7,315 bases of DNA from positions 1 through 7,315 of IMG/VR virus record IMGVR_UViG_2778261512_000020. One strand, written 5' to 3'. The notes under the pieces were generated by a model. That model was given only the letters and a program-made list of their open reading frames with translations, was not told the origin of the DNA and searched no databases. This document shows, piece by piece, positions 2,010 through 7,315 of the stretch; position 1 is the first letter of the stretch; each line of letters starts with the position of its first letter. The stretch comes from a virus. Its lineage: Duplodnaviria; Heunggongvirae; Uroviricota; Caudoviricetes. The position numbers and the translations under genes were made by a program.

Positions 2010-2572
2010 AACAAATGTCACTAATTGAGATGGATGGTTTTCTGAAAGGTAAATGCATCCCAAGTGATTTAAAGGTTAACGAAACAAACGCTGAATATCT
2101 GGTGCGTAAATTTGCTGAAGCGGAGGCCAAGATTTCCGCGCTGTCAGAAGACCAGCAGAGAGCGATTGAGTCAATTAAGCAGGCTGATGCGGCTGTTAAG
2201 TTGGCACACGAGAAGTTTTCAGCGCTGGCTGCGGAGAATGCGGTGATGAAAGCGTTTGGCGACAAGCTATACAGCATGTATAAAGGCCTTGAGGCCTCTG
2301 GTGGTGGATTCCATGACGAACAGTCAATTCCCTATCAGCAAGCGGCTCTCGATGCGGCAATATCGGAGTTCGAGAAAATCAAAACCCCGGCGACCGATGC
2401 GTTCCTGGCTGAATTGCTGGCGCATGGTGTGGAGTTGTTTGCTGAAAGCCAGAATGAATACGTCAGAAAAAACCGCAACGAATTGGATTCCATGACTCGC
2501 GCCGCCTATTGCGGAAGCGCTGTTGATGCTGAGAGATTCGCCGCCCAGCTTCGCAAAGGAGTGCAGTCATGA
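2006..2572 (+). CDS. Hypothetical protein, 188 aa, Ala/Glu-rich and probably helical or coiled-coil
   Basis: ATG 2006 has GGAAG 5 nt upstream and an ATGA overlap with the preceding ORF; the track start GTG 1988 is also possible. Translation [71 protein letters not shown]... Stop TGA 2570-2572. Confidence 0.6.
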
Positions 2573-2802
2573 GCAACCTACTACCATGTCCATTCTGTGG
2601 CGGCGCAGCGCACGTTGCCAGTGAAGCAGATCACCCTGAATATGGCTCTGGAGGTAGATTCTATTTCGTTCGATGCGGTACGTGTCGCGCTCAATCTGGT
2701 AGCAAATATGCAGCGCCTGGAAATGACTGCGCGATTTTTTATTCAGAGGTTAGAGCTGAGTGGAATCAGCGAGCAAAGGAGGCAACCAGTGAGCGAAATT
2801 AA
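2569..2802 (+). CDS. lar: Lar-family restriction-alleviation protein (zinc-ribbon, Rac prophage Lar/RalR-like), 77 aa
   Basis: ATG 2569 overlaps the preceding stop (ATGA), with AAGGAG at 2556-2561. Translation [44 protein letters not shown]...AEWNQRAKE has the CPFCGG ... CGTC zinc-ribbon arrangement I associate with Lar-family proteins. Stop TAA 2800-2802. Confidence 0.65.
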   Translation: MSNLLPCPFCGGAAHVASEADHPEYGSGGRFYFVRCGTCRAQSGSKYAAPGNDCAIFYSEVRAEWNQRAKEATSERN

Positions 2803-3245: not shown

Positions 3246-3647
3246 ATGGCTGAACTAACCAAAGAATGGCTGAAGCAAACTATCGCTGAATACGAAGCCA
3301 ATCGTGATGAATTACCGTTTGGACTGGATACCAACAGTGCCATTGAGCTTCAGGCGTTCAAGTTGGCGCTGGCATCGCTGGAAGCAGATCCAGTTGCTTA
3401 TATTTTCAAACATCCGGCCGGGAAATTATTCTTGGCTTTAACGGATGAAAGCAATAAAGATCAATCGGACGTTATTCCTGTTTATGCCGCCCCTCCAGTA
3501 CCAGTAGTACCTGCTGCATTACCTGAGAACGACGATGAGGACTGGCATGACATTGATTATCTTGAGCCATCTGAAGTTTACTCGCTTGGGCGAACAGCTG
3601 GCTGGAACGCCTGCCGTGCTGCCATGCTTAAGGGAGATAAATCATGA
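3246..3647 (+). CDS. Hypothetical prophage protein, 133 aa
   Basis: ATG 3246 follows the previous stop TAG 3239-3241, with AGGGG at 3231-3235. Translation MAELTKEWLKQTIAEYEANRDELPFGL...VAYIFKHPAGKLF...PVYAAPP...GWNACRAAMLKGDKS has typical coding codon usage. The track start at 3195 would overlap the previous gene. Confidence 0.6.
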   Translation: MAELTKEWLKQTIAEYEANRDELPFGLDTNSAIELQAFKLALASLEADPVAYIFKHPAGKLFLALTDESNKDQSDVIPVYAAPPVPVVPAALPENDDEDWHDIDYLEPSEVYSLGRTAGWNACRAAMLKGDKS

Positions 3648-4060
3648 TTAATCGCACCAAGCTGGAGCACATCCTCGAATATGCCAGACAGCAGAGGCGC
3701 TTTGGTCAGCATTGCAAAATTCCGCCAGGAGATATGGTTGAAATCGTGGAGATTGCCATGCGCAAGGCTGGCAACTCTCCGGTAACTCCGGATGGTTGGA
3801 TAAGCTGTAGTGATCGAATGCCTGTAATTGGTGAGCTAAATTGGAGAACTAGTTTTCCTTTGCTGATTACGTGTGAGATTGGCGTTATACCAGCTTATTA
3901 CGGCTTTGTGAGCATTAATGGGGATAGGCATTATGGCTTTATGGAGAGTCTTAAATACGGAGACGATAGCGGCGGCCATCCTCAAACTAATGAATATGAT
4001 CTGATTAGCAATGTAACCCACTGGATGCCGCTACCAGAACCGCCTCAGGAGGCAAAATGA
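3644..4060 (+). CDS. DUF551-like prophage protein, 138 aa
   Basis: ATG 3644 overlaps the preceding stop (ATGA), with AGGGAG at 3632-3637. The C-terminus ...NVTHWMPLPEPPQEAK and the internal W-x-S-x-DR-x-P segment match my recollection of DUF551 proteins found near xis/int in enterobacterial prophages. Confidence 0.55.
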   Translation: MINRTKLEHILEYARQQRRFGQHCKIPPGDMVEIVEIAMRKAGNSPVTPDGWISCSDRMPVIGELNWRTSFPLLITCEIGVIPAYYGFVSINGDRHYGFMESLKYGDDSGGHPQTNEYDLISNVTHWMPLPEPPQEAK

Positions 4061-4316
4061 TGGATGTAAAAGAGAAGGTTTTGCAGGTGATGCGTTCCCG
4101 GGCGCCCTGCAAGATAAAGCTCTCGGCGGGGAATATCCATTCAGGATGGCAACCTGGAATCTGCGGTTGGCAATGGAGAAGGAATTTCCTGATGAAGAAT
4201 GGCGTTCGGCAGATTTGCGCAAAATTCTTATGGAGCTGGCTAAAGACGGAGCAGTATCCAAAGATACCTATGCCAGCCGGATTGGTCAGACGGTATGGAG
4301 ACTGGAGGTGAGGTAA
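4057..4316 (+). CDS. Hypothetical small protein with ambiguous reading frame (possible frameshifted gene)
   Basis: A strong AGGAGG (4046-4051) and ATG 4057/4060 with an ATGA overlap indicate initiation in the track frame (4057-4311). Downstream, that frame is rich in Trp and rare Arg/Ile codons (AGG, AGA, ATA, CGG), whereas the -1 frame reads protein-like (MATWNLRLAMEKEFPDEEWRSADLRKILMELAKDGAVSKDTYASRIGQTVWRLEVR, ATG 4146 to TAA 4314-4316). Confidence 0.3.
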
Positions 4317-4423
4317 TGGCTAACCTGCAACTTGCCGTCAAATGTGAATAACAATCCTCGCATTCGCGGGGATTTCTTTTATCTGAACTCGCTACGGCGA
4401 GTTTTGTTTTATGGAGATGATAA

Positions 4424-4591
4424 ATGCACTTCCGAGTCACAGGTGAATGGAATGGAGAACCATTCAACAGAGTTATCGAAGCAGAGAACATCAATGACTG
4501 CTATGACCACTGGATGATATGGGCGCAGATAGCACATGCAGACATAACCAATATTCGAATTGAAGAACTGAAAGAACACCAAGCCGCCTGA
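4424..4591 (+). CDS. Hypothetical protein, 55 aa, directly upstream of xis (same size and spacing as the small ORF upstream of xis in lambda)
   Basis: ATG 4424 is preceded by GGAG (4413-4416) with a 7-nt spacer. Translation is MHFRVTGEWNGEPFNRVIEAENINDCYDHWMIWAQIAHADITNIRIEELKEHQAA, stop TGA 4589-4591. It is 168 nt long and 39 nt from the xis start, which is what I recall for lambda. The track missed it (under 60 aa). Confidence 0.55.
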   Translation: MHFRVTGEWNGEPFNRVIEAENINDCYDHWMIWAQIAHADITNIRIEELKEHQAA

Positions 4592-4606
4592 TGGCGGCTT
4601 TTTCTT
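4581..4606 (+). terminator. Rho-independent terminator-like hairpin
   Basis: Perfect 8-bp stem AAGCCGCC (4581-4588) / GGCGGCTT (4593-4600) with loop TGAT, followed by a T-run (4599-4603, TTTTTCTT). The stop codon of the 55-aa ORF lies in the loop. Confidence 0.6.
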
Positions 4607-4650
4607 GCGTGTAATTGCGGAGACTTTGCGATGTACTTGACACTTCAGGA
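4600..4650 (+). promoter_or_regulatory. pI (int) promoter region with cII-binding tetrad repeat TTGC-N6-TTGC
   Basis: TTGCgtgtaaTTGC at 4605-4618 is the direct-repeat architecture of cII-activated promoters (pRE, pI, paQ). It sits just upstream of and overlapping the xis start (4631), as in lambda, where the pI transcript starts inside xis so Int is made without Xis. Confidence 0.65.
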
Positions 4651-4849
4651 GTGGAACGCACGCCAGCGACGCCCAAGAAGCCTTGAAACAGTTCGTCGAT
4701 GGGTGCGCGAATGCAGGATATTCCCTCCTCCGGTTAAGGATGGAAGAGAGTATCTGTTCCACGAATCAGCGGTAAAGGTTGACTTAAATCGACCAGTAAC
4801 AGGTAGCCTTTTGAAGAGGATCAGAAATGGGAAGAAGGCGAAGTCATGA
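4631..4849 (+). CDS. xis: Excisionase Xis, 72 aa
   Basis: Translation MYLTLQEWNARQRRPRSLETVRRWVRECRIFPPPVKDGREYLFHESAVKVDLNRPVTGSLLKRIRNGKKAKS matches lambda Xis as I recall it. The 3' end overlaps the int start by 23 nt, as in lambda. Confidence 0.95.
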   Translation: MYLTLQEWNARQRRPRSLETVRRWVRECRIFPPPVKDGREYLFHESAVKVDLNRPVTGSLLKRIRNGKKAKS

Positions 4850-5897
4850 GCGCCGGGATTTACCCCCTAACCTTTATATAAGAAACAATGGATATTACTG
4901 CTACAGGGACCCAAGGACGGGTAAAGAGTTTGGTTTAGGCCGAGACAGGAGGATAGCAATCACTGAAGCAATACAGGCCAATATTGAGTTATTTTCAGGA
5001 CACAAACACAAGCCTCTGACAGCGAGAATCAACAGTGATAATTCTGTTACGTTACATTCATGGCTTGATCGCTACGAAAAAATCCTCGCCAGCAGAGGAA
5101 TCAAGCAGAAGACACTCATAAATTACATGAGCAAAATTAAAGCAATAAGGAGGGGGCTGCCTGATGCTCCACTTGAAGACATCACCACAAAAGAAATTGC
5201 GGCAATGCTCAATGGATACATAGACGAGGGCAAGGCGGCGTCAGCCAAGTTAATCAGATCAACACTGAGCGATGCATTCCGAGAGGCAATAGCTGAAGGC
5301 CATATAACAACAAACCCGGTCGCTGCCACTCGCGCAGCAAAATCAGAGGTAAGGAGATCAAGACTTACGGCTGACGAATACCTGAAAATTTATCAAGCAG
5401 CAGAATCATCACCATGTTGGCTCAGACTTGCAATGGAACTGGCTGTTGTTACCGGGCAGCGAGTTGGTGATTTATGCGAAATGAAGTGGTCTGATATCGT
5501 AGATGGATATCTTTATGTCGAACAAAGCAAAACAGGCGTAAAAATTGCCATCCCTACAACATTGCATGTTGATGCTCTCGGGATATCAATGAAGGAAACA
5601 CTTGATAAATGCAAAGAGATTCTTGGCGGAGAAACCATAATTGCATCTACTCGTCGTGAACCGCTTTCATCCGGCACAGTATCAAGGTATTTTATGCGCG
5701 CACGAAAAGCATCAGGTCTTTCCTTCGAAGGGGATCCGCCTACCTTTCACGAGTTGCGCAGTTTGTCTGCAAGACTCTATGAGAAGCAGATAAGCGATAA
5801 GTTTGCTCAACATCTTCTCGGACATAAGTCGGACACCATGGCATCACAGTATCGTGATGACAGAGGCAGGGAGTGGGACAAAATTGAAATCAAATAA
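4827..5897 (+). CDS. int: Tyrosine site-specific integrase Int (lambda-type), 356 aa
   Basis: Translation begins MGRRRSHERRDLPPNLYIRNNGYYCYRDPRTGKEFGLGRDRRIAITEA and ends SQYRDDRGREWDKIEIK, with the catalytic R...HxxR...Y residues (HELRSL, HLLGHKSD, ASQYRDD). It matches lambda Int as I recall it. Stop TAA 5895-5897. Confidence 0.97.
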   Translation: MGRRRSHERRDLPPNLYIRNNGYYCYRDPRTGKEFGLGRDRRIAITEAIQANIELFSGHKHKPLTARINSDNSVTLHSWLDRYEKILASRGIKQKTLINYMSKIKAIRRGLPDAPLEDITTKEIAAMLNGYIDEGKAASAKLIRSTLSDAFREAIAEGHITTNPVAATRAAKSEVRRSRLTADEYLKIYQAAESSPCWLRLAMELAVVTGQRVGDLCEMKWSDIVDGYLYVEQSKTGVKIAIPTTLHVDALGISMKETLDKCKEILGGETIIASTRREPLSSGTVSRYFMRARKASGLSFEGDPPTFHELRSLSARLYEKQISDKFAQHLLGHKSDTMASQYRDDRGREWDKIEIK

Positions 5898-5945: not shown

Positions 5946-6031
5946 AGCAATGTTTTTTTATAATGCCAACTTAGTATAAAAAAGCAGGCTTCAACGGATT
6001 CATTTTTCTATTTCATAGCCCGGAGCAACCT

Positions 6032-7315
6032 GTGAACACATTTTCAGTTTCCCGTCTGGCGCTGGCATTGGCTTTTGGCGTGACGCTGACCGCCTGTAGC
6101 TCAACACCACCCGATCAACGTCCTTCTGATCAAACCGCGCCTGGTACCTCTTCTCGCCCGATTCTGTCGGCAAAAGAAGCGCAGAATTTCGATGCTCAAC
6201 ACTATTTTGCATCCCTGACACCAGGTGCTGCAGCGTGGAATCCTTCCCCGATTACCCTGCCTGCGCAACCTGACTTTGTTGTCGGCCCGGCGGGTACTCA
6301 AGGTGTAACGCATACCACGATTCAGGCGGCGGTAGATGCGGCAATTATCAAGCGCACTAACAAGCGCCAGTATATTGCCGTGATGCCTGGTGAGTATCAG
6401 GGAACGGTGTATGTCCCTGCTGCTCCGGGTGGAATTACTCTGTACGGTACAGGTGAAAAACCGATTGATGTGAAGATTGGGCTTTCCCTTGATGGGGGCA
6501 TGAGCCCTGCCGACTGGCGTCACGACGTCAACCCGCGCGGCAAATATATGCCAGGTAAACCAGCGTGGTATATGTACGATAGCTGCCAGAGCAAACGCAG
6601 CGACAGTATCGGTGTTCTCTGCTCTGCGGTCTTCTGGTCACAAAACAATGGCCTGCAACTGCAAAATCTGACCATCGAAAACACGCTGGGCGATAGCGTA
6701 GATGCAGGTAACCATCCGGCGGTGGCACTGCGTACTGATGGTGACCAGGTACAGATTAACAACGTTAACATTCTCGGTCGTCAGAACACCTTCTTTGTCA
6801 CCAACAGCGGTGTGCAGAACCGTCTGGAAACCAACCGTCAGCCGCGTACGCTGGTGACCAACAGCTACATTGAAGGGGATGTGGATATCGTTTCTGGTCG
6901 CGGCGCAGTGGTGTTCGATAACACCGAATTCCGCGTGGTGAACTCACGTACTCAGCAAGAAGCGTATGTGTTTGCACCGGCTACGCTGTCCAACATTTAC
7001 TACGGTTTCCTCGCCGTAAACAGCCGTTTCAATGCTTTCGGTGATGGTGTGGCGCAACTGGGCCGCTCGCTGGATGTTGATGCCAATACCAACGGTCAGG
7101 TGGTGATCCGTGATAGCGCCATCAACGAAGGTTTTAACACGGCTAAACCGTGGGCCGATGCGGTGATCTCTAATCGTCCGTTTGCGGGTAATACCGGCAG
7201 CGTAGATGATAACGACGAAATACAGCGCAATCTGAATGACACTAACTACAACCGCATGTGGGAATACAATAACCGCGGCGTGGGTAGTAAAGTGGTTGCA
7301 GAGGCGAAGAAGTAA
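6032..7315 (+). CDS. ybhC: Host outer-membrane lipoprotein YbhC (pectinesterase-fold acyl-CoA thioesterase family), 427 aa
   Basis: GTG 6032 is preceded by GGAG (6022-6025). The N-terminus MNTFSVSRLALALAFGVTLTAC has a lipoprotein signal peptide with lipobox LTAC, and the body has pectinesterase/beta-helix-like repeats. ybhC flanks attB-lambda in E. coli K-12. Stop TAA 7313-7315. Confidence 0.9.
   Translation: MNTFSVSRLALALAFGVTLTACSSTPPDQRPSDQTAPGTSSRPILSAKEAQNFDAQHYFASLTPGAAAWNPSPITLPAQPDFVVGPAGTQGVTHTTIQAAVDAAIIKRTNKRQYIAVMPGEYQGTVYVPAAPGGITLYGTGEKPIDVKIGLSLDGGMSPADWRHDVNPRGKYMPGKPAWYMYDSCQSKRSDSIGVLCSAVFWSQNNGLQLQNLTIENTLGDSVDAGNHPAVALRTDGDQVQINNVNILGRQNTFFVTNSGVQNRLETNRQPRTLVTNSYIEGDVDIVSGRGAVVFDNTEFRVVNSRTQQEAYVFAPATLSNIYYGFLAVNSRFNAFGDGVAQLGRSLDVDANTNGQVVIRDSAINEGFNTAKPWADAVISNRPFAGNTGSVDDNDEIQRNLNDTNYNRMWEYNNRGVGSKVVAEAKK

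Follow-up and report, generated by a model that had tools for sequence, protein, structure and literature searches.

The conflict between reading frames in the small gene behind the DUF551 gene of the window (the whole stretch of 7,315 nucleotides analyzed here) is very probably explained by one T missing from eaa, a small conserved prophage gene; the window would thus hold either a frameshifted copy of eaa or a one-base sequence error. In lambdoid phages, eaa belongs to the accessory genes of the early-left (int-proximal) region; it is conserved and encodes 86 aa. The ORF at 4057-4311 and the frame ending at TAA 4314-4316 read as two halves of this one gene. The frame conflict had been noticed before, from the letters of the DNA, and it proved to be real, all the elements described being present in the sequence. 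The explanation then put first, a single-base indel joining the N-terminal frame to the -1 frame, agrees with our alignments, which show exactly one gap. As a frameshift of one base in a prophage gene that is known and conserved, the case is an ordinary one, and no new biological mechanism is involved.

Layout of the interval and its prophage context

A lambdoid prophage has integrated at the lambda attachment site, and the window covers its int-proximal, early-left end. Reading along the + strand, an ERF-family recombinase gene, an ssb-position ORF, an anti-RecBCD homologue, a gene for a Lar-like protein and an Ea22-like ORF are followed by the DUF551 gene; 3' of the eaa interval lie a 55-aa ORF, a lambda-type xis, int, the att core and the host gene ybhC. 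The exact lambda att core (GCTTTTTTATACTAA, 5971-5985, - strand) is located between int (which ends at 5897) and ybhC (which starts at 6032) and shows where prophage and host DNA join, at the lambda attachment site. Like known eaa genes, the interval is found in the early-left region between the recombination genes and xis/int, directly downstream of a DUF551 gene and overlapping it by ATGA. Around DUF551-eaa, the gene order of relatives is the same as that of the window. In Klebsiella prophages (L084, L085 3001-3267), the eaa homologue is found in the nin region, before NinB/NinE/NinG and the antiterminator Q, not beside int. The Lar restriction-alleviation match (PF14354, E 1.4e-9; TIGR03655 below cut-off) falls on a 77-aa Cys-rich ORF at 2569-2802 (+), and in phage Louie a longer Lar-like gene lies directly upstream of eaa.

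The DUF551-domain gene (3644-4060, + strand; 138 aa; Pfam PF04448 DUF551, E 2.6e-12) overlaps eaa in such a way that its TGA stop (4058-4060) lies over the ATG of eaa (4057-4059). A second ATG is present at 4060. A Shine-Dalgarno-like AGGAGG (4047-4052, + strand) is located 4 nt 5' of ATG 4057 and 7 nt 5' of ATG 4060, and the motif (as GGAGG) is kept in 73 of 83 relatives. Of the initiation signals listed in the original prediction, ATG 4057/4060 and the ATGA coupling are as described, and AGGAGG is at 4047-4052 rather than at 4046-4051.

Two frames run through the interval on the + strand. From ATG 4057, an 84-aa ORF extends to TGA 4309-4311 (4057-4311) and is composed of 16 native and 68 out-of-frame residues. 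The second frame, which ends at TAA 4314-4316, is open from 4017, and the first start codon in it is ATG 4146, from which a 56-aa ORF (4146-4316) can be read; in the terms of the intact protein, this ATG is the internal Met31. Downstream of 4104, the 84-aa frame contains 6 Trp, 3 Cys and 9 AGG/AGA/ATA/CGG/CGA/CTA codons per 68 codons, compared with 3 Trp, 0 Cys and 5 such codons per 70 codons in the other frame downstream of the break. The shift to Trp and rare codons that had been read from about 4090 onwards is therefore seen in the composition, but it begins after 4104.

The eaa stop is overlapped (TAATG) by an 11-codon mini-ORF (MANLQLAVKCE*, 4316-4351, + strand). From the same start, most relatives read on as ...AVKGEYF... 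into a full gene, and ASCH-domain proteins are annotated under the match in H43 and H44. The mini-ORF is therefore probably what is left of an ASCH gene (in the ea8.5 position) that was deleted or replaced, a stump at a mosaic junction near 4341-4346. The stump is common to 12 of 83 loci and the three closest genomes. Between eaa and xis there are terminator-like hairpins with T tails on the + strand (4353-4374, 4385-4404 and 4581-4600), two of them after the ASCH stump and the third right after the 55-aa ORF; in the region 3900-4700, five terminator-like sites were found versus 0.8 expected. In two E. coli genomes, PigCaeca_1 and LR-06 (L090, L091 3312-4294), the DUF551 gene upstream of an intact eaa has been annotated as a partial pseudogene too, showing that decay and mosaicism are frequent in the DUF551-eaa region.

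Comparison of eaa with intact alleles

Employing megablast with positions 3950-4430 of the window as the query against phage records and complete E. coli genomes, we found this region in 304 phage records and in 2,633 of the 5,426 complete E. coli genomes. In the annotated relatives E. coli HCM-26C-1, phage Lyz12581Vzw and phage Louie, a DUF551-containing or Lar-like gene comes first, and one 261-nt ORF, which overlaps it by ATGA as in the window, comes next; this ORF is labeled "eaa protein" or hypothetical protein and encodes an 86-aa protein (MMDVKEK...RSRAALQDKALGGEYPF...WRLEVR). DNA alignment of the window with four relatives showed a single gap column, and the same was seen again in the alignment with the three closest relatives. 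Where the relatives have GGGCTGCCC, the window has GGGC^GCCC; the T of codon 16 is gone (GCT -> GC-). Alignments to relatives and base counts placed the deletion between 4103 (C) and 4104 (G) on the + strand. The original prediction was correct in proposing a single-base indel, but its interval for the site, 4080-4095, lies about 10-20 nt too far upstream.

The eaa gene is 261 nt long in all 83 loci that we fetched and aligns without gaps to the window gene repaired by one base. At the missing position, 80 of these relatives have T and 3 have A. The deletion sets the window apart from every relative that covers the site (61/61), and over 5,439 covered window bases no other indel distinguishes the window from all covering relatives.

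The closest alleles, found with a 51-mer around 4290-A, are those of the complete E. coli genomes PigCaeca_1, LR-06 and EEC_W5, each of which has an annotated intact eaa protein, WP_094304642.1. Apart from the missing T, these three sequences agree with the window at every base from 4047 to past 4380. In a comparison with the eaa proteins that lambdoid and Stx-converting prophages encode (phrog_2814; e.g., WP_094304642.1, and YP_009907843.1 from Escherichia phage Lyz12581Vzw), all 260 eaa bases present in the window (4057-4316) match the WP_094304642.1 alleles (260/260); with T gone from codon 16, the window has no single ORF for the protein. The first part, codons 1-15 plus GC of codon 16 (4057-4103, + strand; MMDVKEKVLQVMRSR-A), is in the native frame and identical to intact eaa alleles. 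The second part, codons 17-86 plus TAA (4104-4316, + strand; ALQDKALGGEYPFRMATWNL...GQTVWRLEVR*), is displaced to the -1 frame and is 100% identical to WP_094304642.1 in the three complete genomes. The window protein repaired by one base is an exact match to WP_094304642.1. Hence, the window carries the WP_094304642.1 allele minus one T, without any other change.

The A at position 4290 of the window (Thr79) occurs in none of the 83 fetched loci, yet it is common to PigCaeca_1, LR-06 and EEC_W5. Decay after inactivation was considered as the origin of Ala79Thr and rejected, since three complete genomes with intact eaa carry the same change.

The deleted junction itself was searched for as a 49-mer, with no match in the 5,426 complete E. 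coli genomes, and as a 24-mer, which was absent from genome_contigs (185,579 species-representative genomes), IMG/VR (viral_contigs) and JGI metagenomes (metagenome_contigs). A 27-mer with 4290-A had no match in genome_contigs, viral_contigs or metagenome_contigs. The exact 84-aa product was not present among the approximately 15 billion proteins of a sequence collection. For the exact 56-aa product, Thr79 included, there is a record, WP_244571626.1 ("hypothetical protein [Escherichia coli]" in RefSeq), an N-terminally truncated call found by exact-sequence look-up; a look-up for contigs encoding this product returned none on record. WP_244571626.1 is presumably the call of the NCBI pipeline on the same genome as the window.

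Because the allele is otherwise identical to intact ones and the deletion is unshared, the missing T would be either a very recent mutation or a one-base assembly error. We consider a real, very recent mutation the somewhat more probable of the two. If the T was instead lost in sequencing or assembly, a sub-case of the one-base explanation that is less probable but to be taken seriously, the organism has the intact 86-aa WP_094304642.1. An error would be consistent with an allele that otherwise agrees at every base with intact ones from three complete genomes and with a deletion that is a singleton, found in no collection searched. The site is also GC-rich, and loss of the T creates a perfect palindrome, GGGCGCCC; GC-rich palindromic contexts can yield compression or coverage artefacts. 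Moreover, another frameshifted allele, P0104 (in L088), has two one-base insertions at short C runs that look like read errors. Against an error, the lost base is outside any homopolymer, and no window-private indel is seen in the other 5,439 bases that could be compared. The other genes of the window are at their expected lengths (int, 356 aa; xis, 72 aa; the 55-aa ORF; DUF551); therefore, the assembly is not error-rich. The presence of the exact 56-aa truncated product in RefSeq further indicates that the deposited sequence really does read with the deletion. The lack of further decay, with zero other differences from intact alleles, fits a young mutation and a sequencing error equally.

Coding frame of the interval and alternative readings

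The repaired protein matched the profile of phrog_2814 over positions 1-86 of 86 (E 3e-51), whereas the 84-aa ORF matched it with residues 1-25 alone (E 6e-4); a full-length match was obtained only once one base was restored. Members of phrog_2814 are encoded by a single uninterrupted ORF of about 85-88 codons, and the window needs 4057-4103 plus 4104-4316 to make up the same protein. Relative to intact orthologues there is a single indel, and both halves are still homologous to them, as in a frameshift pseudogene. By these comparisons, the locus reads as a disrupted member of phrog_2814, be it a pseudogene or a sequence error.

By database search, we obtained 90 homologues, mostly of 85-88 aa, from Escherichia, Salmonella, Klebsiella, Raoultella and Enterobacter. 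Their identity ranges down to about 57%, that of most full-length ones being at least 62%. The 65 full-length homologues that were aligned (down to 62% identity) run through the break point without a change of frame, and on either side of it many columns are invariant or nearly so. Alignment with relatives, which had been proposed as a check, thus showed that the -1 frame is conserved after the break and that a one-base indel is present.

Among closely related E. coli alleles, pN/pS separated the two frames poorly (0.40 versus 0.46), because a few common allele-group differences dominate; we therefore used the eaa homologues of Klebsiella and Salmonella (63% and 71% nucleotide identity), and the discrimination between frames rests on these divergent homologues. 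Compared with them, pN/pS was 0.18-0.38 in the eaa frame (0.18-0.36 for the part at 4104-4316) and about 1.1-1.3 in the 84-aa frame, and the 84-aa frame contains stop codons in both the Klebsiella and the Salmonella homologues. Among close alleles, 28 of 49 variable sites fall on the third position of the eaa frame, which is the second position of the 84-aa frame. By these values, the eaa frame is under purifying selection and the 84-aa frame is not. The earlier remark that the -1 frame reads like a normal protein is in line with its low pN/pS and with the full-length phrog_2814 match after repair. Two observations that would have spoken for the other frame were looked for: no homologue matching the 84-aa frame over its full length was found, and the -1 frame, with its low pN/pS, gave no sign of being free from purifying selection.

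We also considered the 84-aa ORF as a genuine, independent gene, be it overprinted or new. Its start context is excellent and internal stops are absent, and in intact E. coli alleles, too, this alternative frame runs for 73 codons without a stop. By synonymous-codon resampling, however, a stop-free run of 73 codons in the wrong frame has P of about 0.06 and is within chance; the exact protein is absent from the approximately 15 billion sequences searched; and 21 of 36 variable sites fall on codon position 2 of the 84-aa frame. Taken with the interruption of this frame by stops in Klebsiella and Salmonella and with its pN/pS above 1, these results leave such a gene with hardly any probability, and an overlapping gene in the 84-aa frame was rejected on the stops in divergent homologues, pN/pS and the chance length of the open run.

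In having two overlapping frames on one strand, of which a -1 shift gives a sensible product, the locus resembles the -1 frameshift sites of lambda G/GT, dnaX and IS3-family transposases. A -1 shift at codon 16/17, by programmed frameshifting or transcriptional slippage, would rebuild the conserved protein and restore full-length Eaa, and a CCCGGGC heptamer is present right at the break (4097-4103). This heptamer is in the wrong register for the frame beginning at ATG 4057, and a scan of 4057-4311 for X XXY YYZ heptamers, shifty motifs and homopolymers found only this one, out of register. No homopolymer in the gene is longer than 4 nt, which argues against transcriptional slippage. Unlike the layout of the known sites, that of the window is not conserved: two frames are used neither in the 83 close loci nor in the 65 full-length homologues that were aligned; therefore, a recoding signal would have to stem from one private deletion. 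Programmed frameshifting or slippage was rejected on these grounds (no in-register slippery heptamer, runs of at most 4 nt and single-frame relatives) and is extremely improbable. The original prediction likewise held programmed frameshifting to be unsupported; the only heptamer is out of register and the relatives are single-frame.

Another alternative takes the 56-aa ORF from ATG 4146 as the real gene, coding for a shorter functional Eaa, and the 84-aa ORF as spuriously called. The 56-aa ORF does lie in the conserved frame and retains strand 1, helices 2-3 and the wing of the predicted domain described below, and its exact product was annotated by the NCBI pipeline. In the 65 aligned full-length homologues, however, the protein reaches about 30 residues further upstream, and upstream positions are conserved, K7 and V11 being invariant and V4, K5 and A16 nearly so. 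The internal Met31 is Ile (ATA) in phages Lyz12581Vzw and Louie. No AGGAGG-type Shine-Dalgarno sequence precedes 4146; GGGGAA is 13 nt away and an AGG abuts the ATG, whereas AGGAGG and the ATGA coupling serve ATG 4057/4060 instead, and ribosomes from 4057 would run straight through 4146. Helix 1 of the predicted domain would be missing. A gene starting at 4146 is thus very improbable, and the suggestion of a true start at this ATG was not upheld: the codon is an internal Met, replaced by Ile in Lyz12581Vzw and Louie, and not the native start.

Predicted fold of Eaa and consequences of the frameshift

An AlphaFold2 model was built on P0002 (98% identical to the repaired protein) with the 65-sequence alignment and had a pLDDT of 93.7 and a pTM of 0.83. 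The model has the topology H(4-23)-E(30-32)-H(33-43)-H(51-63)-E(67-69)-E(80-83), with a wing at 67-83. This corresponds to the H1-S1-H2-H3-S2-wing-S3 order of winged-helix (wHTH) domains, and solved winged-helix domains matched the model in structure. The prediction for intact Eaa, made with high confidence, is a small compact winged-helix protein. Eaa has no family in Pfam or NCBIfam scans, a profile search of PDB sequences gave nothing meaningful, and a literature search on Eaa function found nothing relevant. The predicted fold is shared with the small winged-helix proteins STIV F93 (2co5), PapI/PefI (2htj, 2jt1) and RosR (6ez1) and with the winged-helix N-terminal domains of Fur/PerR/ArsR, all without detectable sequence similarity to Eaa. 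The predicted domain of Eaa may bind DNA, but many winged-helix domains make protein contacts instead.

Ribosomes from the conserved, coupled ATG 4057/4060 would make 16 native residues and then continue in the +1 frame of the original gene. As it happens, this frame is open for a further 68 codons, to TGA 4309-4311, which gives the odd Trp- and Cys-rich, rare-codon 84-aa ORF; the coding information for residues 17-86 sits in the other frame, which ends at TAA 4314-4316. Since the break sits inside helix 1 of the predicted domain, the fold would be lost entirely, and the 84-aa product would keep none of it. A product from ATG 4146 would be without helix 1 and would have a weak ribosome-binding site. 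From the model, we infer that the copy as written is non-functional, a frameshift pseudogene. There is a slight chance that the deletion is real and the allele still active: a helix-1-less 56-aa fragment, made by low-level initiation at ATG 4146, might have altered or dominant-negative activity, or the 84-aa chimera, well expressed, might be a newborn protein open to selection. If the latter were true, the stop-free +1 frame of eaa would let frameshift alleles keep making full-length polypeptides.

Other broken copies of eaa are found in public assemblies. Like the window, the frameshifted alleles P0104 (HTY54_28995, E. coli; locus L088 3001-3258, GCA_019431125.1), P0076 and P0098 have an N-terminus in the eaa frame and a tail in the alternative frame, ending with ...PAGLVRRYGDWR; the tails of all three share the ...GDWR end. 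Their ORFs, of 84-85 aa, were accepted by gene callers. Unlike the window, in which the break is after residue 16, they have independent breaks after about residue 33, 53 or 65, and P0104 has two one-base insertions (in short C runs) rather than one deletion. The disrupted alleles P0104, P0076, P0098 and P0007 enter the same stop-free frame or are called from internal Met codons; therefore, several spurious eaa-derived proteins are present in databases. WP_244588056.1 is a truncated eaa call of 47 aa.

The locus should be recorded as a frameshifted eaa (to be corrected if the T proves to be present), not as an 84-aa protein or as the 56-aa hypothetical protein WP_244571626.1. Because the +1 frame of eaa has no stop over 73 codons, an ORF of plausible length still results when a copy is frameshifted, and several products of frameshifted eaa are already in public protein databases. 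Only mildly new is the confident prediction of a minimal winged-helix domain for intact Eaa, a prophage protein that is widespread.
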